Made by a program: the position numbers and the translations under genes. The notes under the pieces were generated by a model. That model searched no databases. It was not told the origin of the DNA and saw only the letters and a list, made by a program, of their open reading frames with translations. Shown here piece after piece: positions 4,740-61,207 of a stretch of DNA of 64,000 bases (within the stretch, counting starts at the first letter, position 1; every line of letters starts with the position of its first letter). Origin of the DNA: Candidatus Pacearchaeota archaeon. Its GTDB lineage: Archaea > Nanobdellota > Nanobdellia > Pacearchaeales > GW2011-AR1. The stretch lies in NCBI GenBank assembly GCA_041649755.1, contig JBAZMK010000001.1, forward strand, positions 66,826-130,825. Direction: 5' to 3'.

Positions 4740-5783
4740 TTAGCAGACAACTTTTCCGTTTAAAATTTGTTCTCTTAAATTATTGATTTCTTCTTCTGTT
4801 TTTTTGGCTCTACCCTTGAGTAATTGTTCTAAATCTTTTGATTCTAATTCTAATATTCTCTTTAAATCTTTGAGTTCTCTTACTATCTGTGAAATCTCTT
4901 TGCTTGTAAGATTTAGATGTGATAGGAATCTGTATCCTTTCGGCATTATGTTCTCTTCAACAGGTTTTTCAAATATGAGACGAGAAATTGATTCTAGGTC
5001 TAAAATTCCTTCAAAAGTAAGATTTTCAAGAAGATTTACAGATTTTTTCAAAGATAATATTGAATAATCTCTAAGAAGTTCACTTTTTGTTTTTTCTATT
5101 CCTCTTAGAAGTTCCCTGTATCTCATCTGCATAACATTGCCTTCTTTTCCGAGTTCTGTAAAACTTTTTTTAATTGATTCTGAGATTTTCATTATCATTT
5201 CTGTTCTTTGGAGGACCTTGCAAACATCACCTACGGAAACGAGTTTTGACATTTCAAGGATGTTGAGGGTTCCTAATTGCTCGTCGAAAATTTCCCTTTG
5301 CTTTTCAAGAATCTGAAGGGTTGAACTAATCTCCCTTATTAATTCTTCTGTTGTTTTAAGATAATACTTTGAGTTTTGGAAATAAAGAGTTGTCTTTCTT
5401 TTTCTTTCTGAGATAGCGATGACAAAAGTTTTTGCCTGTTTTGCTATCCTTTCTGCAGCTTTATGGCGTGTTCCAGTTTCGTTAGTGTGTATGGAGTTGT
5501 CGGGAGTCATTAGTACATTTGCATAGAGAATTCTCTTAAAGTCATCTGAAATTATTATCCCCCCGTCCATTTTGCATAGTTCAAAGAGTTTTTGTGCTGT
5601 AAAACGGCAGTTAATCCTGAATCCTCCCTCAAAAAGCCCTTTTTCGTGAAGTTCGGGAGAATCAAAAACAATTATTGCTCCAAGGTCAGACCTTAAAAGG
5701 TCGTCTATCACATTTCTTAGTGTTGTTCCGGGGGAAACTATCTTTATTAAATCTATGAAGTTTTTCTCTTTTTCTGCAACCAT
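4740..5783 (-). CDS. disA: DisA-type diadenylate cyclase (DNA integrity scanning protein family)
   Basis: DAC domain motifs DGAIIV / DGGIIISDD and RHKAAERIAKQ (bacterial consensus GTRHRAA), helical linker and C-terminal helical region; 347 aa. Confidence 0.8.
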   Translation of the reverse strand: MVAEKEKNFIDLIKIVSPGTTLRNVIDDLLRSDLGAIIVFDSPELHEKGLFEGGFRINCRFTAQKLFELCKMDGGIIISDDFKRILYANVLMTPDNSIHTNETGTRHKAAERIAKQAKTFVIAISERKRKTTLYFQNSKYYLKTTEELIREISSTLQILEKQREIFDEQLGTLNILEMSKLVSVGDVCKVLQRTEMIMKISESIKKSFTELGKEGNVMQMRYRELLRGIEKTKSELLRDYSILSLKKSVNLLENLTFEGILDLESISRLIFEKPVEENIMPKGYRFLSHLNLTSKEISQIVRELKDLKRILELESKDLEQLLKGRAKKTEEEINNLREQILNGKVVC

Positions 5784-5805
5784 GGGGAAAACAAGAACAT
5801 CTACT

Positions 5806-5813
5806 ATTTATAA
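5806..5813 (-). promoter_or_regulatory. TATA box (ttataaat on - strand) about 25 nt upstream of the disA start
   Basis: Reverse complement of 5806-5813 gives GTTATAAATAG; distance to ATG 5783 is about 25 nt. Confidence 0.3.
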
Positions 5814-5909
5814 CTTTATGTATCTCTTCGTATTTACTGGAAAATAAGAAAATGAAATTAAGAAATATAGTATAATAATCTTTAAATAAGTTTTATTTTT
5901 AATTTTTAT

Positions 5910-30682: not shown

Positions 30683-33199
30683 TTAATTTTTACAGGATAA
30701 AGCCCCAACTGCGACGCCTGGTTTCCCGTTAACACTTCCATCGCAGGCGGAACTCGACATCATCGGATGATACGCACTAGTCAGATTAATCCTATGAGGG
30801 CTTCCGTAATCTCCTGATGCTCCAGTAGAAGGATACTGGAAACTATAAGTGTCAAATAAATCCCCTCCAATAAAAAATTCTTCTGAATTTTCAAAATAAT
30901 CTGGGTCACTTGTAGCACCATTAGTGTCTGTGAGAATTTTGGAATTACTATTTAAGTCACTTTCTCCAAGCCAGCCTCCTGCAGACGAGCCTGCCCACAC
31001 ACTATAGATTATATTTCTATCTTCGTTTATACTTGCAAGATCTCCTGAGATCATCCCTGCAACAATATTATCGTAAAAATAAATTGAATTTTTATCGGAA
31101 TTCGTTGCAAAATAGAGATTAACTCCCCCAGAATATCTCCAACTATTTGTTTGAGGAGGATTTTCTCTCCATCTCCCTATTATAGTATTATTCCTAAATG
31201 TAAAATTATGACCCATGTCTGAAAGCCAAACTGTATTTATGTTTACACTATCATAAATCAAGTTACCCTCAACAATCATATTCGAATAACCAATCTCTTC
31301 ATAAGTTCTGTCATAGAACATTAGTGCGGAGGACCTACCAAAACCATGAAATATGTTGTTCCTAATAACAAACGGCTGCCCCCTAACTTCAATAGAAGAA
31401 CCATGAAAGTCTCCCCCAATAGTCTGATAATAAACCTCATTTCCTTCAATCAACACAACATCATCTTTTATTCCTTCAATAGCCATACCTGATTCTGCAA
31501 TGTGGTGAAAGTAATTATTTCGAATAATGATTCCTTTTTTATAACCCCCATCTATACCTACCCCTCTTATAACCCCTGTAATTTCACAATTTTCTACAAC
31601 TATCTCTTCTCTATCATTATTGTCAGAAATATCTCTTCTTGTTATAATCCCACTATAATCCCAAGAACTCCTAGGAAAATTGTCCTCGCCATTTCCCTCT
31701 AAATACATATTCTTAAAATGAAGATTATCAGAATCTCTAATTAAAATCAAGTGGCTTGCAGTTGTTCCTCCATGAACGACGTGCAGACCATCAAACTCAG
31801 CGTATCTATGAATATCTCTACTGAAACCTATACCTGTAAAAACAGGAGGATTGCTGGAAGACTCCGCCTTATAAACAACTTTTCTATCCCAGCCAAGTCT
31901 ATTAATATTACTACTAAATCCTACACCACCATAATTTCCTCCCTTTAATAAGAAAGTAATCATCTCATTAAGGTGAGAATCTGCATAACTTATTGCTTCG
32001 CTCATACTAAATTCATTACCTACCGTTCCTGTATGGCTTCCAGCCCCAGTTAGGGAGACATAAAAAATATCCCCACTCCCCTGAACAACACACTGTCCAT
32101 TAACACAAATTTCTCCTGAAGAGCAAGTTTGTCCGTTTGTTCTGTCCAGACACCCATCACTCCCTAGAATGCAAGTGTACGGCGTATTGCCTTCGCAGAA
32201 ACTTCCTGCAGAAGAACATCCTGCGTCATTAGTACACTCAAGGATTACACATTGTCCGTTAGAATCGCATTCTTCACTGACTCCGCATCCTGGAGGACAA
32301 GTTCCCCCGCAACCATCATCACCACACTCTTTACCCGAACAAGAAGGAACACAAGTTTCGTCTGTCACAACCAGATTTCCTGAAACAACTTCTTCACTCC
32401 CTTGATTGCTTAACTCGGCTTCAAAATGATAAGTCCCTGTTTGAATGACTCCGTCCTGCCTTTGACCAGCAACCCAGTTCATTGAAGTGCTTGAAATACC
32501 GACGAACACAATCTGATTAAACCAGTTGAAAGGATTCCAGCTTAATTCTCCTTGTTTTATAATCACATAATTAATTAACTCATTCTGACAATTACTTCCT
32601 TCTACGATTAGTCTAACAAAACTTTCCTTGGTAGCCGAAGAAGTGTTCCAGTAAGTAGTTGTTAAATCACATTCTCCCGTTCCTCCAGAACTTCCGCCTG
32701 AACCGGACGTAGAAGGTGAGATGTATCCTCCTGAAGGATTTTTCGTCGACAAATCTTTCTTAGGAATCTTCTCTATTACAAGTTCGCTTAAGACTCCACT
32801 TTCACTTCCACCCTCATAAACTGCAATAAGCTTAACAACTAAAAGTTCGCCATAAGAAGAATAATTTGTGAAGTTAAAATTGTAGACTTTCTTTTCATTT
32901 AGGCTGATAATTTCTTCTGATCGATAATAGAGGTTATCGTTTTCCATTTCAAATATCAGCCTAAATCCTGCAATTTTAGCTTCGTCGACTCCCCGTTTTA
33001 TCTGGATTTCAGCCAGCCGATTTTCTGAGTCCCACGCCGTATAACCACTACTCACTATTTCAAGACTGACCATTGCTTCAAATGAAGACAAATCTTTTAG
33101 CATCGGCAGAACAACGAGCCAAAGTATACTTATCGCCGCAATCGTGATAAGAATTATAAGAACTGTAGCAATAACTTGTGACACTGCCCTCTTTTTCAT
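30683..33199 (-). CDS. Large secreted protein with an archaeal type IV pilin-like (class III) signal peptide, a Cys-rich module and parallel beta-helix (PbH1) repeats
   Basis: N-terminus MKKRAVSQVIATVLIILITIAAIS (prepilin-like); Cys-rich CVPSCSGKECGDDGCGGTCPPGCGVSEECDSNGQCV...; beta-helix repeats NNYFHHIAESGMAIEG, IEGNEVYY, IRNNIFHG, VEGNLIYD. Confidence 0.65.
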   Translation of the reverse strand: MKKRAVSQVIATVLIILITIAAISILWLVVLPMLKDLSSFEAMVSLEIVSSGYTAWDSENRLAEIQIKRGVDEAKIAGFRLIFEMENDNLYYRSEEIISLNEKKVYNFNFTNYSSYGELLVVKLIAVYEGGSESGVLSELVIEKIPKKDLSTKNPSGGYISPSTSGSGGSSGGTGECDLTTTYWNTSSATKESFVRLIVEGSNCQNELINYVIIKQGELSWNPFNWFNQIVFVGISSTSMNWVAGQRQDGVIQTGTYHFEAELSNQGSEEVVSGNLVVTDETCVPSCSGKECGDDGCGGTCPPGCGVSEECDSNGQCVILECTNDAGCSSAGSFCEGNTPYTCILGSDGCLDRTNGQTCSSGEICVNGQCVVQGSGDIFYVSLTGAGSHTGTVGNEFSMSEAISYADSHLNEMITFLLKGGNYGGVGFSSNINRLGWDRKVVYKAESSSNPPVFTGIGFSRDIHRYAEFDGLHVVHGGTTASHLILIRDSDNLHFKNMYLEGNGEDNFPRSSWDYSGIITRRDISDNNDREEIVVENCEITGVIRGVGIDGGYKKGIIIRNNYFHHIAESGMAIEGIKDDVVLIEGNEVYYQTIGGDFHGSSIEVRGQPFVIRNNIFHGFGRSSALMFYDRTYEEIGYSNMIVEGNLIYDSVNINTVWLSDMGHNFTFRNNTIIGRWRENPPQTNSWRYSGGVNLYFATNSDKNSIYFYDNIVAGMISGDLASINEDRNIIYSVWAGSSAGGWLGESDLNSNSKILTDTNGATSDPDYFENSEEFFIGGDLFDTYSFQYPSTGASGDYGSPHRINLTSAYHPMMSSSACDGSVNGKPGVAVGALSCKN

Positions 33200-41446: not shown

Positions 41447-41749
41447 TTAAGATTTTCTATGTTTTTTGGACAGCCCTTTTATAGTTCCACTGACTTTTTC
41501 AATAGAAATCCCTGCAAGGGCAAGTCCTGCTCGGACATCTTCCAGAGATTCTCTAAGACAACTTCCTATAATCTTACCCCGAAAATCTTTTAATCTAATC
41601 TCTGTATAACCTGACTTAGCAAAACCAAGAATGCCAAGATAGTCAAGAAGTGCCTTTCTTACTATGGTTGACTCAAGAGTATCTAAGACTAAATATCTTC
41701 TTTTATCTCTTTGAGAGGGTTTTAGCTTTAACTTTTTTACTTTTTCCAT
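41447..41749 (-). CDS. pop5: RNase P protein component Pop5 (Rpp14 family)
   Basis: RDKRRYLVLDT and KVSGTIKGLSKKH match archaeal Pop5. Confidence 0.75.
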   Translation of the reverse strand: MEKVKKLKLKPSQRDKRRYLVLDTLESTIVRKALLDYLGILGFAKSGYTEIRLKDFRGKIIGSCLRESLEDVRAGLALAGISIEKVSGTIKGLSKKHRKS

Positions 41750-44324
41750 AGGAATATGTAGTCTCTTTTCTTTTAATTCTTTTCCATCTAAAGAAAAAAA
41801 GCAAGATTATCAAAAGAATAATAAACAGAAAATAGAGTGATTCACTCATGGGTTCTTCTTTGGGGATATTTTGTATTTCTTCTTTTTTTGTTTTAGGTTC
41901 TACTCTAATCTTCTCATATATCCTTTCTAAAACTACAACCGCTTTTTCTAACTCAATCTTTTCTAACGCTACTTTTAAATCATAATATTCTATGGAACTT
42001 AGATTAACTTTCCTTTCTTCGCCGATGTTTAAAGTTAGATTAATTGGGGAGCTTTGAATTAAGATTCTCGCCTGATTCTCGCCGATTTCAAGAACTCGGA
42101 TGCTATGAGAATTATTATTGAGACTAAAAGAGAACGTTTCTCCTGTTTTTAGGCTTTTTTTTGTAATCTCTCCTTGCTTAATTTCTATTACAGGGGGTGC
42201 TCCTGAAGTTGTCCCGGTGCTTCTGCTTGAGCCTCCAGAACCAATATATGTTGAAGCGAGTGTTGTAAAACTTCCAGAATCATTTACACAATTTTCTGCC
42301 CTGTCACAAGAAGTAATAATATAATTATAGGTTGTTGAAGAAGAAAGACCAGTCAATGCAAATGAATGTGTAGTGTTATACTCTGAAAAACTGCCTCCGA
42401 TATCCACAGAAGAATTCGCGGGCTCACTTGTTCCCCAAGTTATTACAGCCGAAGAGGAAGTTATACTCTCTTCATTCAGAGAACTTATTTGTGGGGAAGT
42501 TGCATCAAAGATAATCGTATGGTTAGAAGTTGCAAAAGAGTAATTTCCTCCTTCGTTATAAGCTAAACAGTTCCAAGAATAATTGCCTTCTTCAGTAAAA
42601 TTTGAGGTGAATATAGTTTGATTATCTGTACCAGAAATATTTTCAAAAGAAGATTTTATTTCATTACTCTCGTTATTCCAAAGATAAAATGTGACATTCG
42701 TGAGATTATAATTTTCATAGGAGAATAATTGGCACGTGAAGTTAGTTTCATTATTTTTTGTGTATGTGTTATTTAATGGTGAAGATAAATTTACTAAGAT
42801 GCCTTTAGAGGTGAAAGTAAAGTTTGAAGAAGAAAAACCTAAGTTGTCCTTTTCATCGTAGACAAAACAATTCCATTCGTAATCCCCTAAGGGGATATTG
42901 ATTATATCAAAAGAAGTTTCATTCTGGGTTCCTGTCAAATTTTTTGTTTCATTGTAATAAAAACTGCTTTCATTCCATATTTTGAGAGTGATATTTTTTA
43001 ACTGCCAGTCTGTTGCGTTGCAGGTAAAGGTTTTATTTCCAGATAAGTTTACTTCATTGTTTTCCGGGGAAACAAGGTATACCTCTGGCTGAATGTTATC
43101 TAAAAATAGTATTGCGGAGTATACGTCAATTCTTGATAGATTATTTGTTATAAAATTTATTGAGTATCCGGTTAAATTAAGGGCTTCTAATATCTCGTTC
43201 TGTGTTTTTTCTGGTAGCAGACTTTTTATTAAACCTATTGAACCTGCAACTAGGGGGGTGGACATTGAAGTTCCGTCGGCAGAAGCATATCCATTATTTA
43301 GATAGGAGGAAGTTATATTTGAACCTGGGGCAGCGATATCCACCCAGCTTCCATAATTAGAGAAGTTACTCTTTAAGTCAGAAGCATTAGTTGCTCCGAC
43401 AGAGAGTACATTATCATACGCTGCAGGATAAGTTAAGGTGTTGGTATTTTCATTTCCTGCCGCTGCAACCAAAATTATCCCTGCATCGTAAGCGTCCTGT
43501 AATACTTCTTCTATTCCTGAAGAAGAGGATGTTGCTCCAAAACTCATAGAGATTATATCTGCTCCATTGTCTATTGAATAGTTAATTGCTTGGATAATAG
43601 ATGGGGTTTGCAACGACCCCCTCCCTAAGATATCTCTGTACCCTGCTCTTAATACCATAATTTTACAATTCGGACAAATCCCAGATATCCCTATAGAATT
43701 ATTTGTTTTTGCTGCTGCAATCCCTGCACAATGAGTCCCGTGACCATACAAATCAATTGGATTACTATCTGTTTCATTGCAATCTTCGTTTAAAGAAGAA
43801 CACTCAGATTCGTCCTGAACGTCTACAAAATCGTAACCTATTATGTCATCTATATATCCATTTCCATCATCATCATAGCCGTTAATAGTTTCGTCAGTGT
43901 TATTCCAAATGTTATCCTCTAAATCCGAATGGTTCCATTCAACTCCTGTATCAATAATTGCTATAACAACCGACTCATTTCCTTTTGTTAGGTTCCAACT
44001 CTCTTCGGAAGAGATTTTTTTAAGATGCCATTGAAGAGAATAATATTCATCATTAGGTGTCCAGAAAGTATGGTAAATATAATTGGGCTCTGCATAGAGT
44101 ACATCTTCTCTTTTAGAGTATTCTTCTGCCTTTTCTTTTATATCTAAAACTTCCAAGTTTTTTATTTTACTCTCGGTTTTAATTGATGGGGCATCAAGTT
44201 TACGCACTTCTAAAGAGCCGTTTTTGTATTTGACGAATATTTCATTAGGAACATACTCCCCACTTCCATAAACAAAGCTACAAAATAAAATCCCAAAAAA
44301 GAAAATAATCAAAACTTTATTCAT
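41703..44324 (-). CDS. Secreted subtilisin-like (S8) serine peptidase with Ig/Fn3-like repeats, heavy NxS/T sequon load and a C-terminal TM anchor
   Basis: Catalytic triad motifs AIIDTGV (Asp), HGTHCAGIAAA (His), GTSMSTPLVAG (Ser); likely start at MNKVLIIFFFG (44324); C-terminal TM plus KR tail. Confidence 0.85.
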   Translation of the reverse strand: MNKVLIIFFFGILFCSFVYGSGEYVPNEIFVKYKNGSLEVRKLDAPSIKTESKIKNLEVLDIKEKAEEYSKREDVLYAEPNYIYHTFWTPNDEYYSLQWHLKKISSEESWNLTKGNESVVIAIIDTGVEWNHSDLEDNIWNNTDETINGYDDDGNGYIDDIIGYDFVDVQDESECSSLNEDCNETDSNPIDLYGHGTHCAGIAAAKTNNSIGISGICPNCKIMVLRAGYRDILGRGSLQTPSIIQAINYSIDNGADIISMSFGATSSSSGIEEVLQDAYDAGIILVAAAGNENTNTLTYPAAYDNVLSVGATNASDLKSNFSNYGSWVDIAAPGSNITSSYLNNGYASADGTSMSTPLVAGSIGLIKSLLPEKTQNEILEALNLTGYSINFITNNLSRIDVYSAILFLDNIQPEVYLVSPENNEVNLSGNKTFTCNATDWQLKNITLKIWNESSFYYNETKNLTGTQNETSFDIINIPLGDYEWNCFVYDEKDNLGFSSSNFTFTSKGILVNLSSPLNNTYTKNNETNFTCQLFSYENYNLTNVTFYLWNNESNEIKSSFENISGTDNQTIFTSNFTEEGNYSWNCLAYNEGGNYSFATSNHTIIFDATSPQISSLNEESITSSSAVITWGTSEPANSSVDIGGSFSEYNTTHSFALTGLSSSTTYNYIITSCDRAENCVNDSGSFTTLASTYIGSGGSSRSTGTTSGAPPVIEIKQGEITKKSLKTGETFSFSLNNNSHSIRVLEIGENQARILIQSSPINLTLNIGEERKVNLSSIEYYDLKVALEKIELEKAVVVLERIYEKIRVEPKTKKEEIQNIPKEEPMSESLYFLFIILLIILLFFFRWKRIKRKETTYSYGKSKKVKAKTLSKR

Positions 44325-44745
44325 TCCAGACAACCCCACATTTTCCGTCGATGAAATCGCAGTAGCCAGCCCCACAATCCATTGTTCCGGCGCGACATTC
44401 CATTGTACAGAAAATATCTGAGCAGTTTGGAGCTAAATCTTTTTGAACACAGGAAGTTGCGTGACAGCACTGTGCAGGTACACATTCTATTTCGCTATCA
44501 AGTTCGCATTCCCTTTTAAAAAAAGCCCACTCTTCACATTCTTCTCCTGACGAAGAGACACAATAACCAACCTGTCCTTCTTCTTTTTCACGAATTTCTA
44601 ATTCATGCCCTCGAGATATACAATATTCTGACGCAGGGTTAGCTATTTGATTAGCCGAGTTTTTTAAATCAAAAATAAATAAACTAATTCCTGTTAAAAT
44701 TAGCGCCCCTAATGCTATTGCTAAAACCAATATCTTTTTGTTCAT
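44317..44745 (-). CDS. Small secreted Cys-rich protein (12 Cys) immediately upstream of, and overlapping, the S8 protease gene
   Basis: Signal/TM MNKKILVLAIALGALILTGISLFIF; 12 Cys in about 110 mature residues. Confidence 0.5.
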   Translation of the reverse strand: MNKKILVLAIALGALILTGISLFIFDLKNSANQIANPASEYCISRGHELEIREKEEGQVGYCVSSSGEECEEWAFFKRECELDSEIECVPAQCCHATSCVQKDLAPNCSDIFCTMECRAGTMDCGAGYCDFIDGKCGVVWNE

Positions 44746-52873: not shown

Positions 52874-53128
52874 ATGGAAGTTAAAATAATTAAAGATGAA
52901 AAGAATGAACTTGATATAGAGTTGGATAACCTTACAGTTGCAGAGCTTTTGAGAGTTTATCTAAATAAAAATGATGTTAAGATGGTTGCTTGGAAAAGAG
53001 ACCATCCTACAAAAAACCCTGTTTTACATATAGAAGCAGACAATCCGAAAAAGGCTTTAAAGAATTCAATAGCCCAGATAGAAAAAGAGATAGAATCTGC
53101 ATTAAAGGAATTTAAAAAATTAAAGTGA
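52874..53128 (+). CDS. rpoL: DNA-directed RNA polymerase subunit L (Rpo11)
   Basis: Size and pattern NELDIELDNLTVAELLR...HP...P.LHIEAD of Rpo11/RpoL. Confidence 0.65.
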   Translation: MEVKIIKDEKNELDIELDNLTVAELLRVYLNKNDVKMVAWKRDHPTKNPVLHIEADNPKKALKNSIAQIEKEIESALKEFKKLK

Positions 53129-54133
53129 ATTTTTTCTTTTGTTCTTTTTTGCTTCTTTTTTGCTTCTCACTAAAAAGTATATTATTATTATGTCAAGAAC
53201 TATTAAAGAAGTCAGGGTTACTATTGCTCCTCTGAATTTTTTCTCGCTTCCTTCAAGAACAAAGAAAGAGTATGAACCCGTCGCTATGTTTTCTCCATAA
53301 GAGGCTTTTAGATAGAGAACATATTGACCTGGAGGGAGGTCTCTGGGGATGCTTAAACCCCTTACTAATTCAAGTTTATCTTCTATTGCGATGCTTTCCT
53401 CTTTAAATGTCAAAATGTTACCATCAAAATCTTTTATAGCATAATAAAAGAAAACATCTATGCCTTTTAAGTGCCCCATATTTGTAAGGTTAAAACTCAC
53501 TTCAACTTTTTGACCAGAATAAACATAATCCTCTGTCAACTCCCCACTGACATCAAATAAGGGGGACCTTTCTTTAATATTAATTAAAACATTTATATAT
53601 TTAGTTAGGTTCCCTGATTTTACATTTATTTTTCCAGTATAAACTTCGGGTATTTCTTTATCTTCTGCAAAAACCGTAACGCCTATGTTTTTGATTTCCT
53701 GAGGGCTTAGACTAAATTTTTCTTCACTTAAAAACAAAAATTTTTCAAGGTTATGTGAAAGAGTTATGCTTTGCGAGTTATTTCCGGTGTTTTTCACTTT
53801 AATAGACCCGTTTGCTGTTTCTCCCTGCTTAATAGAATAATATAGGAAGTTCTTGTCTAATTCAAAATTGGAGATGCTCAATGGGGGTCCTACGCTAATC
53901 CCTCCGCTAGGACCTCCCCCTTCAGGAATATCGGGTGCTGGGGGGGCAGGACATTCACCACAATCTTCTTGACAAGAAGTACAATTCTCGTTCCACTCAC
54001 AAACACCATTCCCACAAACTCCGGGAATTGAGACTCTTGAAGGGGTCTGAACAGCATATCCGACATATCTTATTGTAAATACGGAAAGAAGACCTAATAA
54101 TAAAAAAACAACCAACCAAGATTTATTTTCCAT
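53120..54133 (-). CDS. Secreted surface protein: Cys-rich N-terminal module, Pro-rich linker, CARDB-like beta-sandwich, C-terminal TM plus Lys-rich tail
   Basis: Signal MENKSWLVVFLLLGLLSVF; CGNGVCEWNENCTSCQEDCGECPAPPAP; TM IVTLTSLIVLDIIIIYFLV + KKEAKKNKRKNSL. Confidence 0.55.
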   Translation of the reverse strand: MENKSWLVVFLLLGLLSVFTIRYVGYAVQTPSRVSIPGVCGNGVCEWNENCTSCQEDCGECPAPPAPDIPEGGGPSGGISVGPPLSISNFELDKNFLYYSIKQGETANGSIKVKNTGNNSQSITLSHNLEKFLFLSEEKFSLSPQEIKNIGVTVFAEDKEIPEVYTGKINVKSGNLTKYINVLINIKERSPLFDVSGELTEDYVYSGQKVEVSFNLTNMGHLKGIDVFFYYAIKDFDGNILTFKEESIAIEDKLELVRGLSIPRDLPPGQYVLYLKASYGENIATGSYSFFVLEGSEKKFRGAIVTLTSLIVLDIIIIYFLVRSKKEAKKNKRKNSL

Positions 54134-54153
54134 AGAAAATTGTAAGTAAAATA

Positions 54154-54816
54154 CTATTTATTTCTTTTCAATTTTTTCTTTCTGACAATTTTCCTTTTAA
54201 TCTTTCTTTTTGGCATTGATTGCGTGATAGAAGTCGGGGATTTATTATAATTTTTACGAACAAGGAATATTATTATAATAAGAGAGACTACAGCAATCAG
54301 GATATAAAGGGCGGTAAGGTCTCTTCCAGATGAATTACAAATTACTTTGATTCTTAAGGGGGCAGAAACTACCATCTGAGTGGCTGAACCTCCAGAATTA
54401 TCTATTTCAGAGGGATTTGCTACTGATTTAACCATTACTTCGCCAGAGAAGATTTTTTGTTCCTCAGAACATTCTTGTTTACATAATGTCCCTAAAAAAC
54501 AATCTTTTTCGTATACCTGGGGAACTTCAAAGCAAAATTCTATAGGTATCGCACTACCACTCGGGGTATTTGCAGGGATTAATTTTGTTTCAGTTTCCTG
54601 AAAAATCAAGACCTCTTTCAATTCTTCTGATAACTCAATCACTACATAGCTTTCTGTGGGCCAGGGATTATAAACTCCATAGCTTACACAGGCTTTACCA
54701 CCCTCCTCTAAGACAATTGACTCTTTTTCCCACTTAATTCCAACACCTGCTAACGAAAGTGGAACTAAAGATAAAATCCCTAAAATTAACCCTGCTAATA
54801 TCACCTCTTTTTTCAT
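54154..54816 (-). CDS. Secreted surface protein with C-terminal TM plus Lys-rich tail
   Basis: Signal MKKEVILAGLILGILSLVPLSLA; TM ALYILIAVVSLIIIIFLV + RKKKLKRNK. Confidence 0.5.
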   Translation of the reverse strand: MKKEVILAGLILGILSLVPLSLAGVGIKWEKESIVLEEGGKACVSYGVYNPWPTESYVVIELSEELKEVLIFQETETKLIPANTPSGSAIPIEFCFEVPQVYEKDCFLGTLCKQECSEEQKIFSGEVMVKSVANPSEIDNSGGSATQMVVSAPLRIKVICNSSGRDLTALYILIAVVSLIIIIFLVRKNYNKSPTSITQSMPKRKIKRKIVRKKKLKRNK

Positions 54817-54817
54817 T

Positions 54818-55402
54818 TTATTCGCAATTTCCTCCTGTAATTACTCCCTTAAAATAGACTGTATTATTATATGTTCCTACTGGTTGTGCTGCAGGGATAT
54901 CCAACCAAAATCGGTAATAGAAATTACTTCCTTTCTCTATATCCACTCCTGACTTAACATAACTCTTTGTAAGTGAAACTTCACTCGCTACGGCAGGCGT
55001 ACCTGCATCTGTTGTTGTGGAATTTGCGTATGTTTGATTACCCACTCCAATAATCTCCAGTTCCTGACTCATCAGGTCTTCATTTGCTTTAATGCACAAA
55101 TCCACATTAGAATTACTATCGTTTGAAACTTCAATATACATTGTACTTCCACTGCTCCCCCCATCATGATTATGGGTTGCGTTCACATTTGTTCCAGGTA
55201 ATTCATTTATTGTTCCAAATAAGATTCCTTCGCCTAAGTTGCTTGACATCTGGATTGCCAAATAAGAAGTGATTGTAACATTTGAAACTGCAGAGCCCTC
55301 TGTAACGTATCCTGTCATTCCGATACTTTGCAAGAGAATCATTGAAATGGATAAAACTAATAGAATTCCGAAGAAAACAATAAAGAAATTATCTCTTTTC
55401 AT
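54818..55402 (-). CDS. Secreted protein whose C-terminal ~100 aa is homologous to the C-terminus of the giant protein 55439-61207
   Basis: VDLCIKANEDLMSQELEIIGVGNQT...YYRFWLDIPAAQPVGTYNNTVYFKGV aligns with VDVYLKANSDLMTADLDTLGIGNET...IYLKFFLSAPPAQPAGVYNNSLLFKAV. Confidence 0.5.
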   Translation of the reverse strand: MKRDNFFIVFFGILLVLSISMILLQSIGMTGYVTEGSAVSNVTITSYLAIQMSSNLGEGILFGTINELPGTNVNATHNHDGGSSGSTMYIEVSNDSNSNVDLCIKANEDLMSQELEIIGVGNQTYANSTTTDAGTPAVASEVSLTKSYVKSGVDIEKGSNFYYRFWLDIPAAQPVGTYNNTVYFKGVITGGNCE

Positions 55403-55438
55403 AGTACTTATTGAATCTTTTTATTTATAAATCTTTTG

Positions 55439-58400
55439 TCAAGGAGTCTGGCCGTGAGGAACTGCTTTGAATAAAAGAGAGTTGTTGTAAACTCCTGCCG
55501 GCTGAGCGGGGGGTGCACTCAAGAAAAATTTCAAATAGATGACGCTTCCATCGCCAAGATTGTCTCCTATCTTATTATCATAATCTGTTGTAAGACTATA
55601 TTTAGTTTCACTTGGAACGCTCTGATTATCATAACTATACGAAAAAGTTTCGTTTCCGATTCCAAGAGTATCTAAATCAGCGGTCATTAAATCTGAGTTT
55701 GCTTTTAAGTAAACATCTACGCCAGAACTTAAAGTAGAGATATTTATGTAATAATCTGTTGAGCCTTCGCCATTATTCCCTTCTGCCGACTGATTGAATA
55801 TGGGTAAGGAAGAGATTGTCCAATTTATCTTATCATTTAGCTTATCAGAGAAATAAATCGCTATTCCTTCTTCTGCAGATTGTATTGTTAAATTCCATTC
55901 TCCCGTCGCATTAGAGATATCTAGATTAGAAGTTAAATTAGCAAACGCATAAAAACTATGTGTATTACTCGCCTCTCCTGTTGCGTTTACCCAGAAAGTT
56001 ATCGTCTCACTCTGTCCTTCGGTCAATGAAGAAGTTGTCAAAGGATTTGAACTTGCATTTGTGTAGAAAGGCGTTCCAGAATTAATAGGAATTAAACCTG
56101 AGGAGTATAAGCTTGTGTTGATTGTTTCACAATTCCCTTCAAGACAGGTCACATTTAAGGTTACATTAAAAAATTCGTTTTGTGTTATATTAATATTCTC
56201 TGTCGGATATAAAACCTCTAACCCTATTAAAGGAGTTGAATTAACAAAGAAAACAACGGATTCCGTATCGTTTAAATTTCCTGCAGTATCATTACAATAA
56301 GCATAAATTGTGTAAGTATTGTTTGATGATATAGAATAAGTTGAATTGAACACTAAATTATCTGTGGTGTCCATTGAAAAGTTTGAGGTTCCGTTTCCGA
56401 ACCAGCAAGTTCCTTCTTCGTTGATTGTAAAATTCACCACGATAGAAGTTGTTGAATAAGAGTATGTTTGATTTAGTGGAGAGTTTATTGTTACAGAAGG
56501 TGGAGTTGCATCCATTCCACTAATTGTTACCGTTCTCATTTCAGTTTCATTCACATTCCCAGCCATATCTTGTGTGTATGCTTTGAATGTGTGTGTTCCT
56601 TCTGCTAAACTTGTGAAGTTATGGTAGGAGTTTCCGCTCCAGACAGTTAAGTTTCCTCTTTTTACTAGTATAATATGGTTTGGAACAGTTACATCGTAGA
56701 TTCTTCCATTGTAATTCTCTTTTGTTATGTTTTTTATTTTTATTTCTCTGCCTTTTTCATCTAAAAATACCAAATTATCTGTATTTTTATTGCCTTTTTC
56801 AATTTCAGAGTATAATTCAGAGATTTTTATTAGGTTGAAATTGTTTAGTTCTTCCCTACCAAAAGGTTTAAATACTTTATTTGTATGCAAATAAGATAAA
56901 TAATTACTTTGTAAATCCAAGATGGGAACAATCACTCTATCTGTGCCTGATGAATTGAAGTCTGAAATGGATAGTACTGATTTTATTAATTGGTCTTCAG
57001 TAGCAAGAAGGGCATTTTTGGAGGTACTCAAGGATGTTAAAAAATTAGAATTATTAAAGAAACTTAGAGAAATTTCTGAAATATCTGATGATGACAGAAG
57101 AGAGATTAAAGATTCTCTTGTCAAAGAAGTAGTGGATTCTGTTGAAAAGGTTTCTAAAGACTTAAAGTCCGGCAAGATCAAGCCGAAAAGCTTAAAAGAA
57201 TTCAATGCATTCTGTGAGTCATGAATATTGATACTACCCTTATTGATGATACTCTCATCAAGCTTAGAAAAAAAGATTTGACTCTTTTTAGGGCTCTTCA
57301 AAAGAAAATCTGCCAAATTGCCCAACTCGATTGGGATTCCCTTCAGCATTTCAAAAATTTGAGGGGGAGCCTTAAAGACTATAAGCGAGTCCATGTTGGA
57401 AGTTACGTCCTTATTTTCAAGGTAGAAAGAGAGGTTATTATCTTCGCCAAATTTGTCCATCATGACGAGGCTTACTGAGCCGCGCTTTTCTTTTTTATTA
57501 GAATAAGCAACATAAACTTTATGCTCAGGTGAAACGAGCAGGCTTCCTTTTTCTTCATCATAATTTTCAGTTTCAATTCTGTACATTTCTTCATTTTCAT
57601 GTGCAAAATCCTGTTTTTCAGTTGGTTTTTGCCATTCAGTTTCTCCTGAATTTGAATTAAGAGTGAGGATTTCATCCTCTAAACTTACATTTGAAAAATG
57701 TTTCCAGCCAGAATCAGTCATAACTTCTGTTTCATTATCAAAACAGTATTTTGTACTCTGGTTTGCGTATAATGCCTGAATTTCTTCAGCAGATAAACTT
57801 CTATTAAATATCATTACATCGTCGATGGAACCGTTGAAACTTTGACTATTATCTGATTTAGAACCTATATTAGCAGTATTCAAGTTTATTGGACGTCCAC
57901 TAAAAGCATAATAGCTACCTCCATATTGCCCATTTAAATACAGAAATATGCCACTTTCATTATTGATTACTACAAGATTATTCCAAGTATCTTCTGTAAT
58001 AACTGGACCATTAATATTAATATTAGGTCCATCAGAATCCCATCTAACCCGCACAATATCATCGTCTGACCACCTAATAAAAGCACTAGGATAGCCAGTT
58101 CCTGCAAGATTAAATAAGTAATTATCAGTTCCATCATTTATTGCTTTAAACCAAAGCGAAATGGTAGAATAAGTATATGAAACACTAGGTCCAGCAACAT
58201 CAACATAATCCCCATCTCCATCAAACTCAAACCCCTTCCCTAGTTTTCCAGCAGTTGTTTGTTTTGCATCCCCTTGTTTTGTTCCATTGTTGCTTCCAGT
58301 ATAATCTACCACTGTTGTTCCATTAAAGTCATCCATCCTCCACCATCCTACTAATGAATTATCAAAGTCAATGAATGTGCTTATGTTGCTATTTCCTCTT

Positions 58401-61207
58401 CCAATATCACTTGCCGAAACATTCACAAAAATAAAGTCATCACTTGTAACATTCCCTTCTTCAAGCGTCGGGGGAACAAATTCTATTAGAGGTTTCATAT
58501 CTTCTTCAAATTCCCACCCCAATCTAGGGTAATCATTTCCATCATCAATAAACCAAGTTTCATTTACATAATCGCCTTTTTCTGCAATGTTCCAACTTGC
58601 TGTTGTAAAAGTAGATATGTTTTGCATTTGTGCTGTTGTTTTTCCTATTGCGTCTCCTCCTCCTGTTGATTGTCCAGATGATTCAGTGTCCCAAAAAGAA
58701 TTTGTATCTATCCCTTGGTCTAACCCAACAAAACCTTTATCTGTTGGGTCATCTGTTCCTTCATAATGAACTGAACCTGTTGAATAAGATTTATTAATCC
58801 TGCCCACATAATTCCTTCCAGCAAAACCCCCATTAGCTGTTGAAGTTCCTGAAATACGGGTAACACTTCCAGTAGAGTAGGAATTTGAAATATTTGATCC
58901 ATCACTCATCCCAACAAATCCCCCTATGTAATAAGTCCCCGAGGAATTTCCTTTTGCGTAACAGGAATCAACCATTATATTAATACTATGACCTATAAAC
59001 CCCCCGTTTGTCTCTACACTTCCAGAAACATTTCCACTTGACCAGCAATTAGTAATATAAACAGAGGCATAATTTGAATTAGCATACCCTACAAGACCCC
59101 CTAAGTACGAAGTCCCAGAAATATTACCTATGAAATAACTATTTGTAACATTGCCTGAACGAAGATAACCAATTAAACCCCCTACCCATTGTCCTGTACT
59201 AGATACTAAGCAAGAGGAATTAGAGGAGGTTATAGAACTAATATAAGAAGGATAAAAAGAACCCACTAATCCCCCTGCAGTTCCTCCTGTAGATGTAATA
59301 GCCCCGCTTGACCAGCAGTTTGCAATAGAGACATTATTATACCCATTACCTAATATTGCCCCAACATCAGCCTTTCCCGTAACATCACAATCAATAACCC
59401 CTAAATTACTGACAGAGCCTCCATTAATCCTCCCAAACAAGCCCTGATAATCCGTTCCGCTTCTATTAGTATATAGATTACTGATTGTATGATTTTGTCC
59501 GTCAAAAGTTCCTGTAAATGTAGCAATAGGCAACCAACCAGCACCTGTTGTAAACGCTTCCATATTGTCACAATTTTCATAGGAATCGCAATCGCTAAAA
59601 TTTAAATCTCTTAAAAGAATATAAGAAGCAGATAAATTATTTCTTGTTTCGTTTAAGTCTTCAACTGAGTTAATTTCTATTGGTGGGTCAATAACATAAT
59701 CATATTCTATATCCCCAAAACTTCTCAAGTCAAAAGTATCCTGTTCTCCTTCAAGTTCAGTAAGATAAATTTTATACTCTCCTCCCTCATAGATATTATC
59801 AAAAACTGCTAGTGTTTCGTTATTATCTTTTTCGTAAACTTTTACATTTCCAGAATCGTTACTTCTTGCATAAATTGTAATATCTTTTTCATTTGTCAAA
59901 TTCTCTTCAAAAGTCACTCTCAAATATTCTCCATTGGGAATCAAAACATAACTGCCGTCTAATCCTTTCACACTTTCGTAAACATCTTCTAAGAATGTGT
60001 AATTTTCATCTAAATGTTCTGCTTTGGTTATTTCAATTATCTCAAATGTCGGGTCAAGTTCAATAATCTGTCCAATTTCGGTTTCCTCTGAACTAAAATC
60101 TCTTTCTATATAGACGGTTACTATATTTTCATAGAATAATTCTTCTTTAGGACCTTTTACTTCTTCAACAACCCGCGAAGTGACGCCAGAGATAAACTTT
60201 ATTACCGAGCCTGTTATGTCGCCTTCGTTAGAGACCTCTTCTCCCCCGTTAGATTCTTCTGTAAAATTTTCTTCTAAATCCTCAGAAGTATTATCTTCTT
60301 CTAAACTATTTTCTTCGGTTTCTTCATCAGGCAAGAGTTCTTCAACCGAATCTAAAGAAAGATTTTCCATATTCCCCTCTTCGGTTATGTTTGAAGGTTC
60401 TTCTGCAGATAAATTCTCTGTTAGTTCTGTTAAGTTTTCTTCTTCGGTTAGGTTCTCTAAAAAGCCTATACCTGTTTCGTTAGCAGTTACATTCTCTTTT
60501 TCTTCTGTGAAGTTATAATCTTCTTCTAATTCAGATGAATTATCTGTTAATTCTGTTAGGTTTTCTTCTTTAGTTATGTTCAGCTCTTCCGGTATAAATT
60601 CTATTTCAGGAAGACCAATTTTGACATTATAACCCTGCCCTTCTAAATCGCTAAAAGAGATTATAGACCTCCCGATTTGAAGCGTGCTATCATTAATAAT
60701 TTTAATAGTGAGACTGGAGGTTACGTCAATTTTAGCTGAAAAATTTAACTCATTTAACTGGATATAATAACCCCACTTGTACTTTTGTTCTTCTTTCGTG
60801 TCCTCTTCAACTTTTATATCAAAATCTTCAGCCGGAGCCACTGATGAATCCGCAATCTCTTTTAATTTTTCTGAGAGATTCTCAGGATTTTCATTTAAAA
60901 CCCCTTTATTTTTATTAATCTCCTCAACAAAATCGCTGTGATTCAGCAAATCAAAGTAAATTCTTATCATTCCTTCTTCAAGTTCAAAGTCCATTCTTTT
61001 ATTTTTATTAAAGCTTCTAACTTCTCCCATAAATTTTGAAGGTTCTTTAATTTCCAGTTTTGAAGAGTCTTTTTCTATTCTTGTTTCAACAACCTCATCA
61101 GAAATTACATATCCTACGATAGAATTGTTAGAAATTAAAATAAGAAGAAAAAGTAAAAGGAAAAATCCTATAATAATTTTATACCTCTTACCGCCATTAA
61201 TTCTCAT
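55439..61207 (-). CDS. Giant (1922 aa) cell-surface protein: signal/TM, acidic sequon-rich region, GLUG-type Gly-rich repeats, LamG (ConA-like) domain, Hint/intein-like domain, Ig-like domains, shared C-terminal module
   Basis: N-terminal KRYKIIIGFFLLLFLLILI; dozens of NxT/S sequons; repeats GG[LF][VI]G every ~20 aa (GLUG-like); LamG motif LWFKA...IDDVMIFNRSLSAEEIQALY; Hint blocks CFDNETEVMT, GSLLVSPEHKVYV, RIYDVTVPNHIILV...GNS. Confidence 0.8.
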   Translation of the reverse strand: MRINGGKRYKIIIGFFLLLFLLILISNNSIVGYVISDEVVETRIEKDSSKLEIKEPSKFMGEVRSFNKNKRMDFELEEGMIRIYFDLLNHSDFVEEINKNKGVLNENPENLSEKLKEIADSSVAPAEDFDIKVEEDTKEEQKYKWGYYIQLNELNFSAKIDVTSSLTIKIINDSTLQIGRSIISFSDLEGQGYNVKIGLPEIEFIPEELNITKEENLTELTDNSSELEEDYNFTEEKENVTANETGIGFLENLTEEENLTELTENLSAEEPSNITEEGNMENLSLDSVEELLPDEETEENSLEEDNTSEDLEENFTEESNGGEEVSNEGDITGSVIKFISGVTSRVVEEVKGPKEELFYENIVTVYIERDFSSEETEIGQIIELDPTFEIIEITKAEHLDENYTFLEDVYESVKGLDGSYVLIPNGEYLRVTFEENLTNEKDITIYARSNDSGNVKVYEKDNNETLAVFDNIYEGGEYKIYLTELEGEQDTFDLRSFGDIEYDYVIDPPIEINSVEDLNETRNNLSASYILLRDLNFSDCDSYENCDNMEAFTTGAGWLPIATFTGTFDGQNHTISNLYTNRSGTDYQGLFGRINGGSVSNLGVIDCDVTGKADVGAILGNGYNNVSIANCWSSGAITSTGGTAGGLVGSFYPSYISSITSSNSSCLVSSTGQWVGGLIGYLRSGNVTNSYFIGNISGTSYLGGLVGYANSNYASVYITNCWSSGNVSGSVETNGGFIGHSINIMVDSCYAKGNSSGTYYIGGFVGMSDGSNISNSYSTGSVTRISGTSTANGGFAGRNYVGRINKSYSTGSVHYEGTDDPTDKGFVGLDQGIDTNSFWDTESSGQSTGGGDAIGKTTAQMQNISTFTTASWNIAEKGDYVNETWFIDDGNDYPRLGWEFEEDMKPLIEFVPPTLEEGNVTSDDFIFVNVSASDIGRGNSNISTFIDFDNSLVGWWRMDDFNGTTVVDYTGSNNGTKQGDAKQTTAGKLGKGFEFDGDGDYVDVAGPSVSYTYSTISLWFKAINDGTDNYLFNLAGTGYPSAFIRWSDDDIVRVRWDSDGPNININGPVITEDTWNNLVVINNESGIFLYLNGQYGGSYYAFSGRPINLNTANIGSKSDNSQSFNGSIDDVMIFNRSLSAEEIQALYANQSTKYCFDNETEVMTDSGWKHFSNVSLEDEILTLNSNSGETEWQKPTEKQDFAHENEEMYRIETENYDEEKGSLLVSPEHKVYVAYSNKKEKRGSVSLVMMDKFGEDNNLSFYLENKDVTSNMDSLIVFKAPPQIFEMLKGIPIELGNLADFLLKSPKKSQIFFSKLDESIINKGSINIHDSQNALNSFKLFGLILPDFKSLETFSTESTTSLTRESLISLLSSSDISEISLSFFNNSNFLTSLSTSKNALLATEDQLIKSVLSISDFNSSGTDRVIVPILDLQSNYLSYLHTNKVFKPFGREELNNFNLIKISELYSEIEKGNKNTDNLVFLDEKGREIKIKNITKENYNGRIYDVTVPNHIILVKRGNLTVWSGNSYHNFTSLAEGTHTFKAYTQDMAGNVNETEMRTVTISGMDATPPSVTINSPLNQTYSYSTTSIVVNFTINEEGTCWFGNGTSNFSMDTTDNLVFNSTYSISSNNTYTIYAYCNDTAGNLNDTESVVFFVNSTPLIGLEVLYPTENINITQNEFFNVTLNVTCLEGNCETINTSLYSSGLIPINSGTPFYTNASSNPLTTSSLTEGQSETITFWVNATGEASNTHSFYAFANLTSNLDISNATGEWNLTIQSAEEGIAIYFSDKLNDKINWTISSLPIFNQSAEGNNGEGSTDYYINISTLSSGVDVYLKANSDLMTADLDTLGIGNETFSYSYDNQSVPSETKYSLTTDYDNKIGDNLGDGSVIYLKFFLSAPPAQPAGVYNNSLLFKAVPHGQTP
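56922..57224 (+). CDS. Ribbon-helix-helix (CopG-like) antitoxin
   Basis: N-terminal beta-strand/helix TITLSVPDELKSEMD..INWSSVARRAFLEVL; acidic C-terminal half; stop overlaps the toxin start (ATGA); lies on the strand opposite the giant gene. Confidence 0.6.
   Translation: MGTITLSVPDELKSEMDSTDFINWSSVARRAFLEVLKDVKKLELLKKLREISEISDDDRREIKDSLVKEVVDSVEKVSKDLKSGKIKPKSLKEFNAFCES
57221..57478 (+). CDS. RelE/ParE-family toxin (85 aa)
   Basis: C-terminal GSLKDYKRVHVGSYVLIFKVEREVIIFAKFVHHDEAY matches the RelE/ParE consensus (G.l.g.yRlRvGdYRiiY.v.d...v.il.i.hRkd.Y). Confidence 0.7.
   Translation: MNIDTTLIDDTLIKLRKKDLTLFRALQKKICQIAQLDWDSLQHFKNLRGSLKDYKRVHVGSYVLIFKVEREVIIFAKFVHHDEAY

Follow-up and report, generated by a model that had tools for sequence, protein, structure and literature searches.

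The window analyzed here comprises 64,000 nucleotides (nt) of a Candidatus Pacearchaeota archaeon (assembly GCA_041649755.1, contig JBAZMK010000001.1, positions 66,826 to 130,825 of the forward strand; coordinates below are counted from the first letter of this stretch) and contains an island of four consecutive minus-strand genes for surface proteins, the largest of which includes a predicted intein with a toxin-antitoxin (TA) cassette on its opposite strand. The genes next to the island are those for Mre11, Rad50 and an RpoL-like protein at one end and those for a DUF4389 and a RadB-like protein at the other. An earlier note on this DNA, made by a model from the letters alone, had placed the four genes exactly where the list of open reading frames (ORFs) has them: p337 (53120..54133, 337 amino acids (aa)), p220 (54154..54816, 220 aa), p194 (54818..55402, 194 aa) and a giant precursor (55439..61207, 1922 aa, 1550 aa once the intein is removed), whose gene is separated from that of p194 by 36 nt (55403-55438). 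In agreement with the signal or anchor sequences noted then, all four proteins open with a hydrophobic stretch of 14-19 residues; AlphaFold2 (AF2) models an N-terminal helix for p194 (residues 3-24) and for p220 (residues 2-17). The guess that the DNA stems from a DPANN archaeon has held, p194 and the giant protein being 100% identical to proteins from a Candidatus Pacearchaeota metagenome-assembled genome (MAG). What had been missed is the intein together with the two plus-strand genes inside the giant gene, and it is this antisense TA cassette that stands out as most unusual in the region. An Rfam scan detected no RNA family in the island, and no tRNA was found in the whole window.

The predicted intein covers residues 1155-1526 of the giant protein (372 aa; 56630..57745, minus strand). 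It starts with Cys1, i.e., Cys1155 of the giant protein (CFDNETE...; CFDNETEVMTDSGW), contains block B (LLVSPEHKVY) and block F (IYDVTVPNHIILV) and ends in ...VWSGN, followed by Ser1527 as the +1 residue. S72 and H75 of the block B SxxH motif are invariant in an alignment of related inteins. The first residue is Cys in 29 of the 30 related loci in which it was read and Ser in L035, four other matches having begun at query residue 14, and WSGN|S forms the C-terminal end in 34/34 relatives from giant genes of DPANN archaea, with Ser always at position +1. Homologous inteins reside in the giant proteins P0108, P0074, P0107, P0085, P0079, P0086 and P0114. By tblastn, the window intein is furthermore homologous to the LAGLIDADG inteins found in other hosts (E 2e-11 to 2e-13), and its nearest sequences in the PDB are the AceL NrdHF-1-1 and gp41-1 inteins (6zgq, E 1.2e-4; 6qaz, 6riz). 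A scan with hidden Markov models (HMMs) found no endonuclease family in it; residues ~1244-1429 (giant numbering) are the S/L/I/F/N-rich antisense reading of the TA cassette.

Deletion of residues 1155-1526 yields LYANQSTKY-SYHNFTSLAEGTHTFKAY, which aligns without gaps to intein-less junctions between LamG and immunoglobulin (Ig)-like domains, e.g., LYANTSSKYLEHTFSGL and LYANQSNRYLANNFTDLADG, as present in repeats of P0070, P0072, P0083 and P0078. Such a gap-free, conserved junction upon deletion is the signature of precise intein insertion. The predicted junction peptide of the spliced giant protein reads ...LYANQSTKYSYHNFTSLAEGTHTFK, also given as ...ALYANQSTKYSYHNFTSLAEGTHTFK. Judged by these motifs, the element is a class-1-type intein without homing endonuclease that is predicted to splice.

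The cassette in the intein consists of a putative antitoxin gene (56922..57224, plus strand, 100 aa) and a downstream putative toxin gene (57221..57478, plus strand, 85 aa), the latter codon-aligned with the host frame. Antitoxin stop and toxin start overlap by 4 nt (ATGA). The toxin probably belongs to the YafQ/RelE/ParE superfamily, reaching 23.2 bits with PF05016 (ParE_toxin; cut-off 23), 24.5 bits with TIGR02385 (cut-off 27.9) and E 7.6e-13 with TIGR00053 (YafQ), and shares 47-69% identity with the toxins of eight other inteins, in which antitoxin and toxin are paired likewise. The antitoxin matches a VapB-type family weakly (E 1e-6, 29.2 bits vs. a cut-off of 60) and clusters with 28 other intein-borne or intein-associated antitoxins, a family that pairs with both PIN_2 and RelE toxins. 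The toxin stop is followed at once by a GC clamp and oligo-T tract (gccgcgcttttcttttttatt; 57479..57500, plus strand), read in the host frame as ...NKKEKRG..., which may, by its sequence, be an archaeal-type terminator. A TATA-like A/T-rich stretch ~27 nt before the antitoxin ATG was considered as TA promoter and dismissed, as it constitutes no evidence in a genome of 33% GC.

Selection keeps the host frame open across the cassette. Among 820 control windows of 557 nt taken from ordinary genes of the window, none had any stop-free antisense frame, and every intein cassette has exactly one. When the toxin gene was recoded synonymously with the codon usage of the genome, a mean of 5.6 stops arose in the host frame, which remained open in 0.1% of the trials; the same procedure gave 1-5.6 stops for most cassette genes and 0 for two antitoxins. 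The stop-free fractions of 12 cassette genes from five loci multiply to ~1e-15, a simple product in which the small fractions are rough. Compared with the host-frame linker encoded by the same DNA, the toxin proteins showed the higher conservation in 36/36 pairs of the RelE type, 93/136 of PIN_2 and 18/21 of DUF5615. For the antitoxins the outcome was mixed (14/36 pairs for RelE, 56/136 for PIN_2 and 21/21 for DUF433 cassettes); that the test does not favor the AT-family antitoxins of RelE and PIN_2 cassettes is explained by the use of the same DNA in both frames.

To follow the element through related genomes, one genome per GTDB species was scanned with a profile of the intein N-terminus. 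This returned 78 loci, and the complete inteins of the DPANN giant-ORF type (ending WSGN|S) number 34. An antisense two-gene cassette is present in 29 of these 34, either as antitoxin plus PIN_2 (16), antitoxin plus RelE/YafQ/ParE (8) or DUF433 plus DUF5615 (7), two loci carrying two cassettes; three TA types are thereby represented in about 30 genomes. The first four other inteins that were checked all have antisense cassettes (PIN_2 in L001 and L002, DUF433/DUF5615 plus PIN_2 in L003, DUF433/DUF5615 in L004), with PIN_2, DUF5615 and DUF433 matches above the Pfam cut-offs. The cassettes are located between blocks B and F, the classical place of the endonuclease, or in the loop between blocks F and G. 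Recognizable cassettes are absent from ~35 related inteins of other hosts, and in-frame LAGLIDADG_3 occurs in all four of those tested with Pfam. Within the giant-protein family there are at least four recurrent intein sites plus several one-off sites, the recurrent ones comprising two in a conserved N-domain (both empty in the window protein), one in LamG (D-x-S-G|SNNGT) and the LamG-to-Ig junction, which is used in the window and in L007. A literature search for inteins with TA, antisense, PIN-domain or overlapping-gene cargo and for inteins in DPANN archaea, with most papers in subscription journals outside its coverage, returned nothing relevant. An intein with antisense TA cargo thus appears to be undescribed, and as an observation it is well supported.

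The inteins in DPANN giant genes that lack a TA cassette contain tRNA-like genes of 82-88 nt on the sense strand instead. Such genes were located in L017 (1017-1101), L023 (5412-5493, 5847-5928, 7602-7683 and 8886-8967), L035 (4910-4991), L030 (3794-3875) and L046 (1506-1587 and 4863-4944). Those of L017, L035 and L030 as well as the first two of L023 lie within the mapped intein, the last two of L023 and both of L046 outside of it. They have a GAU anticodon (AAU in one L046 copy according to ARAGORN), an unusually long variable arm and, in the two copies with a printed alignment, 51-56% GC within AT-rich giant genes; they score 31-53 bits with the Rfam tRNA model (gathering score 29) and do not interrupt the giant ORF. 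Such genes could represent integration sites or another type of cargo for inteins.

Toxin-antitoxin genes also occur next to the giant genes. A free-standing PIN_2 plus antitoxin cassette is situated between two giant genes of L004 (5125-5769); its families are those of the intein-borne cassettes, and it has a stop-free antisense frame (a 202-aa ORF, 5219-5827) and no flanking intein, which suggests that the cassette itself is mobile or was recently released from an intein. In L085, an MNT (NTP_transf_2) plus HEPN toxin-antitoxin pair (558-1596) is inserted between the giant and the pilin gene, and the giant genes of L002 and L004 are bordered by several TA pairs. The turnover of TA modules around giant genes appears to be high. 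An intein of the family in L058 (5001-7463, 821 aa) has an in-frame Schlafen/AlbA_2 plus HATPase_c_4 insert (E 1e-21 and 6e-19) and no TA cassette. Six loci with giant ORFs and inteins of the DPANN type (L009, L010, L014, L021, L049 and L052) are filed under MAGs of Atribacterota, Saccharibacteria and Methanosarcinales; these names are probably binning errors.

The giant protein that harbors the intein is built from many parts, all encoded on the minus strand. A signal/anchor helix (aa 1-33, 61109..61207) with a 16-residue hydrophobic run ends in ...IVGYV. An acidic, sequon-rich spacer (aa 196-335, 60203..60622) has 48 D/E and 3 K/R in 140 aa. The conserved domain of ~130 aa that follows (aa 380-510, 59678..60070) belongs to no Pfam family; it is the most widely common segment, being found in more than 100 giant DPANN proteins of otherwise differing architecture, and it is the preferred intein target in other genomes, where sites after ...DITIYAR... 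and after ...YKIYLTxLxG are filled that are empty here. The GLUG-like repeats described in the earlier note (aa ~590-800, 58808..59440, two stretches) exceed the Pfam cut-off (PF07581, 28.2 vs. 20.5 bits). Further on there is a LamG-like lectin-type domain (aa 996-1144, 57776..58222; Laminin_G_3, PF13385, E 1.2e-19, 71.3 vs. 27.6 bits). Behind the intein, Ig-like domains (aa 1527-1771, 55895..56629; Big_13-like at the start, weak PF19077 and OmpL47-type matches) are common to many giant homologues. A match to the TafC fimbrial protein (NCBIfam) was rejected as evidence for Tat fimbriae, since it covers the LamG region only and scores 28 bits (cut-off 410).

An extreme density of N-glycosylation sequons had been claimed for this protein. 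Enrichment as such was substantiated by 79 NxS/T sequons (4.1 per 100 aa) vs. 34.6 in composition-preserving shuffles (z 8.8) and by comparison with the cytoplasmic proteins of the window (0-1 per 100 aa), while the description of the acidic stretch as almost entirely made of sequons was an overstatement, there being 13 in 140 aa. A secreted subtilase of 890 aa (41703-44375, minus strand; Peptidase_S8, E 5e-59) has 4.6 sequons per 100 aa (z 6.6). As it is the sole other protein of the window with a similar enrichment, sequon richness seems to be a general trait of large secreted proteins in this archaeon.

The C-terminus of the giant protein is homologous to p194. The similarity reported earlier for the last ~100 residues survives formal statistics (BLASTP, 40% identity over 154 columns, E 8e-21), but it is longer than had been thought, p194 aa 41-190 aligning with giant aa 1772-1919 (55451..55894, minus strand), such that the module corresponds to the entire mature small protein of ~150 aa. 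No further copy of module or island was found in the window by tblastn. In the copy of the giant protein the two Cys (103 and 193) kept in the stand-alone family are missing. As the earlier note had proposed, the module was searched for in relatives, and it is widespread: a word-indexed search with p194 gave 68 close relatives, the taxon-named ones all from DPANN archaea, and a full profile search gave 782 cluster representatives, 144 of them below 1e-30. Most family members have 185-210 aa, and in large proteins (404, 545, 1322, 1755 and 3174 aa) the module is strictly C-terminal. The family shares the motif RFWLDIPxxQxxGTYNNTVxFKG, several sequons as conserved columns and, in the linker after the N-terminal helix, a conserved TGYATEGSxxSNVTI. 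A subgroup of 275-299 aa has ~100 extra N-terminal residues, which in P0066 stand before the hydrophobic helix. The label DUF4402 on this homologue was not adopted, Pfam backing it for only 1/35 members (E 0.015).

The motif that follows the N-terminal helix is not confined to p194. A hydrophobic helix followed by [TV]-G-Y-[AV] recurs in the giant protein, p194 and p337 (IVGYV, MTGYV and YVGYA; 61109-61207, 55300-55402 and 54040-54133, respectively), the p194 family consensus at this position being TGxATE, and may represent a lineage-specific processing site.

The AF2 model of p194 (35 sequences; predicted local distance difference test (pLDDT) 86.5) consists of the N-terminal helix, a low-confidence linker (residues 25-49) and an eight-stranded beta-sandwich. 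Just C-terminal to the helix lies a conserved segment, SNVTIxxYLSIxMS, outside the confident core (pLDDT 54-69). When the model was compared with the PDB by Foldseek, ~40 of the top 50 matches were subunits of donor-strand-exchange fibers (E 6e-4 to 9e-2), the best being the environmental fibril TLP-1b (E 6e-4) and others including CsuA/B, CfaB, AbpA of the Pyrobaculum bundling pilus, FimA, PapA, SafA and Caf1 as well as the Sulfolobus thread subunit Saci_0406 and Pyrodictium CanA. A search of the PDB with the p194 profile gave nothing meaningful. We take the likeness to pilins as a fold-level lead, not as family membership.

The two remaining proteins of the island are predicted to be anchored by a C-terminal transmembrane helix with a K/R-rich tail, as had been noticed before; sequence supports this for both, and for p220 the AF2 model (pLDDT 88.1) does so as well, showing a single Ig-like sandwich plus this helix (aa 168-190). 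Besides an N-terminal signal helix, p220 has six conserved Cys, a VYNPWP motif and a helical basic tail; its 72 homologues all have about 180-235 aa. Its Foldseek matches (E about 4e-4 to 2e-3) comprise MSP/PapD-like domains, the Caf1M chaperone, WxLIP of E. faecium (9i1y) and complement MG domains, and p220 is a candidate membrane-anchored chaperone or assembly partner. p337 has a signal/anchor helix, a Cys-rich CGNGxC...CP motif and two beta-sandwich domains with weak matches (Cep192_D6, fn3_5 and, with E 7e-6, a putative S-layer protein). A p337-type module is fused to the C-terminus of the giant protein P0074 (E 7e-16), which argues that p337 is a membrane anchor; it is a candidate for a membrane-anchored base or stalk of the apparatus.

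The idea of a common surface-protein island has been corroborated by the conservation of the four genes as an operon in relatives. L005, L006, L085 and L086 all keep the gene order of a variable protein that ends in the module, followed by pilin, p220 and p337, and in all of them the p220 homologue gene adjoins the pilin gene; p337 homologues take the equivalent operon position in L005, L006, L001 and L085. The first protein varies, from 405 aa in L005, which has two pilin genes, and 676 aa in L006 to at least 1989 aa in L086, where it has five LamG domains and lacks an intein. In the syntenic relative L085, the last 171 aa of the giant protein are 80% identical to those of the window giant. 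At least nine pairs of p194 and p220 homologues on contigs of equal size are consistent with adjacency. The operon contains no usher-like gene, and p220 is a single-domain protein with a transmembrane anchor, not a two-domain PapD-like chaperone.

Taken together, we consider it fairly probable that the region has two layers, namely a donor-strand-type fiber operon with a modular adhesin and an intein carrying an antisense TA operon. The first layer, which rests on fold and synteny and not on sequence-family membership, would be a Sec-exported, probably N-glycosylated surface fiber built like pili formed by donor-strand complementation. p194 would be the repeating subunit and the giant protein, with its GLUG, LamG and Ig-like domains, a modular adhesin, possibly at the tip, whose last ~150 aa would plug it into the fiber; p220 and p337 would be membrane-anchored partners that hold, chaperone or anchor the subunits. 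Polymerization would proceed by strand donation, possibly after cleavage of the N-terminal helices. The conserved but low-confidence linker of p194 (aa 25-49) fits a strand in need of a partner. A common sorting, anchoring or recognition module had been suggested in the earlier note; that it is a brief tag for sorting or anchoring is a view we abandon because the module is a complete beta-sandwich domain with donor-strand-exchange pilins as nearest structures, for which the term polymerization or fiber-incorporation domain fits better. A PGF-CTERM/archaeosortase-type sorting signal was rejected likewise, the module being a folded domain of 150 aa without terminal transmembrane segment. Thus, what was observed earlier is confirmed, and its interpretation is partly supported and refined, with moderate confidence, to a donor-strand-type fiber operon with modular adhesin.

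Several findings speak against the fiber. Foldseek E-values for p194 are modest (6e-4 to 1e-2), with template modeling scores of 0.3-0.46, and the protein matches no Pfam or NCBIfam family and by sequence no pilin family, be it Fimbrial, SCPU/DUF4402, TasA/Peptidase_M73 or thread; Ig-like sandwiches are common folds, and the p220 matches are generic for them. The module of the giant protein retains the region equivalent to the putative donor strand, and the subgroup of 275-299 aa suggests that the helix may be a retained anchor and not a cleaved signal peptide. This last point also suits an alternative that we judge unlikely, in which the module would be a non-polymerizing docking or anchoring domain and small and giant proteins would bind p220/p337 non-covalently in the manner of WxL/WxLIP, without any fiber, the retained helix then fitting membrane-bound subunits. 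Small and large secreted proteins with a common C-terminal domain do occur here next to an Ig-like protein with transmembrane anchor, WxLIP of E. faecium is among the fold matches of p220, and the direct fusion of a p337-type anchor to P0074 implies that giants need a membrane anchor. However, 9i1y ranks only 20th among the generic Ig-like matches of p220, the fold search with p194 yields donor-strand pilins and no WxL protein in the top 50, there is no Pfam WxL match, and the conserved strand-like N-terminal segment outside the folded core is a pilin trait.

For the fiber reading, the closest functional analogy to the island is provided by archaeal threads, which undergo Sec export and cleavage by signal peptidase I, are heavily N-glycosylated with several N-glycans on each subunit, are joined by donor strands and have a second subunit-like protein encoded adjacently (PMC9715654); the environmental TLP-1 fibrils serve as a further comparison for a donor-strand-type fiber (PMC11494351). 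With threads (Saci_0406), TasA-like bundling pili and TLP-1, the island has in common an N-terminus of the Sec type, a small subunit that folds as a beta-sandwich and has an N-terminal extension, numerous sequons for N-glycans, fold matches (7pnb, 7ueg, 9ikk) and an adjacently encoded accessory subunit of the same fold. It differs in the lack of sequence homology, in its occurrence in a DPANN lineage, in the second subunit-like domain being the C-terminus of a giant multidomain adhesin and in the two C-terminally anchored membrane proteins that are always co-encoded. Chaperone-usher pili (type 1, P, Csu, CFA/I, Caf1) resemble the island in the fold of their major subunits, in adhesins that combine binding domains with a C-terminal pilin domain, as in FimH- and PapG-type adhesins and as proposed for the module of the giant protein, and in an Ig-like partner protein, Caf1M being among the matches of p220. 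In contrast to these pili, there is neither an outer membrane nor an usher nor any sequence similarity, and the putative chaperone combines a single Ig-like domain with a membrane anchor. The WxL/WxLIP clusters of Firmicutes also combine small and large proteins with a common C-terminal domain and a neighboring Ig-like ectodomain with transmembrane anchor; given the lack of a WxL Pfam match, the pilin matches of the p194 fold and the archaeal lineage, only the organization is analogous.

In the second layer, translation of the giant precursor would run through the TA genes in antisense and yield a linker of low complexity, which is feasible as the host frame is free of stops across the cassette. 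Protein splicing would then discard the linker with the intein and restore the LamG-to-Ig junction. The cassette would be transcribed from within the 3' coding region of the intein, and its antisense placement would be a simple way to embed an independently translated operon without its stops falling into the host frame. Inteins tolerate large insertions at the position of the endonuclease. An element without endonuclease should, on standard theory, otherwise decay, and for this reason we propose addiction: owing to the TA cargo, losing the intein or the giant gene would come at a cost, and the intein would act as a harmless landing pad. Spread between sites might occur, speculatively, through recombination of the repeated LamG/Ig modules. 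Belief and doubt are about evenly balanced for the wider proposal that the inteins of DPANN giant genes are unrecognized composite mobile elements, i.e., carriers made neutral by splicing, in which addiction replaces homing and the cargo comprises antisense TA operons from at least three families as well as sense-strand tRNA-like genes in some relatives.

It is quite improbable that the cassette is regulatory instead, throttling the adhesin by convergent transcription or antisense RNA, or serves abortive-infection defense in a gene for a probable virus receptor. Its strict antisense orientation, which makes two transcription units collide, and the clustering of TA modules around giant genes (MNT-HEPN in L085, the flanking pairs in L002 and L004) would be in line with such a role, but the interchange of three unrelated toxin families at one position indicates generic cargo and not a tuned regulator, and the antisense orientation is simply the only way to embed such an operon without stops in the host frame.

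The intein layer, too, has its weak points. Gly takes the place of the usual penultimate His; the intein models, which cover giant aa 1155-1233 and reach about aa 1511, stay below their curated cut-offs (TIGR01445, 21.2 vs. 24.5 bits; PF14890, 21.0 vs. 35.8 bits); a secreted host protein is an unusual setting for inteins; and as to the cargo, the window antitoxin has neither a curated family nor a Pfam match, the YafQ match of the toxin (48.9 bits) falling short of the cut-off of 87.25. The missing His and the low model scores, together with a secreted and hypervariable host as known for bacterial intein-like (BIL) domains, could be accounted for by a Hint domain that only cleaves itself, releasing or diversifying the adhesin head, with the TA cassette as an incidental passenger. 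This we regard as very doubtful. The relatives possess Cys1 (bar one Ser1), the His of block B, the Asn at the end and Ser at +1, removal restores a conserved junction exactly, and in many relatives the element resides within a conserved domain (YLTxLxG|...|S..DTFDL) whose fold would be rebuilt only by ligation; cleavage would, moreover, part the adhesive domains from the C-terminal pilin module. Finally, antisense ORFs in long genes are usually noise and gene callers prefer the longest ORF, but the notion that the giant ORF is an artefact, i.e., a gene broken by TA insertion with a chance open frame, or that the plus-strand ORFs are spurious, is refuted by statistics and can practically be discarded in view of the 0/820 control windows, the recoding probability of ~1e-15 over 12 genes, the repetition of the layout in 29 independent loci, the matches of cargo ORFs to curated TA families above threshold and the precise flanking of the cassette by the intein halves.

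As a carrier of antisense cargo, the predicted intein can be set against several known systems. With homing-endonuclease inteins (L051, L066, L071, L078) it has in common homologous N- and C-terminal splicing regions, the ends C...W[CS]GN|[STC] and a cargo between blocks B and F. It differs from them by the lack of an in-frame endonuclease, by a cargo that is an independent operon on the other strand, by hosts that are giant secreted surface proteins and not conserved replication or repair enzymes, and by at least four recurrent insertion sites within one protein family. In the fractured genes that Dassa and co-workers reportedly described in 2009, split inteins have a free-standing endonuclease gene between their halves (gp41-1, NrdHF-type AceL). 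These share with the window an independently expressed gene between intein halves, and they provide the nearest solved sequences to the window intein. However, their host gene is split into two ORFs that rely on trans-splicing and their cargo is a nuclease gene, whereas here the host ORF is continuous, the embedded DNA is readable on both strands and the cargo is a TA pair. The BIL Hint domains, said to have been reported by Amitai and co-workers in 2003 from secreted, hypervariable surface proteins, are likewise endonuclease-less Hint-fold elements in large variable secreted proteins; the window element differs by canonical intein termini including the +1 Ser, by true inteins as relatives and by its antisense cargo. 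Type II TA modules in integron cassettes, integrative and conjugative elements and genomic islands are thought to penalize the loss of mobile or dispensable DNA. The cassette resembles them as a type II TA within dispensable or mobile DNA and differs by its position within a protein-coding gene, where it would be tolerated only through protein splicing.

For DPANN archaea, a life attached to host cells is assumed, and little is understood of how the attachment works. The operon described here, with a pilin-like family of ~780 clusters and interchangeable giant adhesins, represents a testable candidate for an attachment apparatus, and the fiber reading would extend donor-strand-type fibers to this lineage. 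Homing endonucleases are the usual explanation for the persistence of inteins, which are textbook examples of selfish elements. The occurrence of endonuclease-less inteins with antisense TA operons across a lineage suggests a second route to persistence, i.e., addiction, and the layout suggests how TA modules could inhabit a coding gene and leave it intact. Long antisense dual coding occurs naturally at this locus, with selection that can be demonstrated, and, if the composite-element reading is true, there are regions on the kilobase scale in which both DNA strands are under coding selection. That inteins apparently tolerate junk linkers of 180-260 residues is of interest for intein engineering. 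For annotation, the locus is a warning that real genes may lie concealed opposite the giant ORFs of DPANN archaea.

Elsewhere in the window, the cluster at 36-41 kb was considered as a paralogous island and set aside, its genes having no similarity to the surface-protein island and looking like housekeeping genes. An 838-aa protein encoded on the minus strand at 30683-33199 has no Pfam match; its start (MKKRAVSQVIATVLIILITIAA) resembles, by eye, an archaeal type IV pilin-like (class III) signal.

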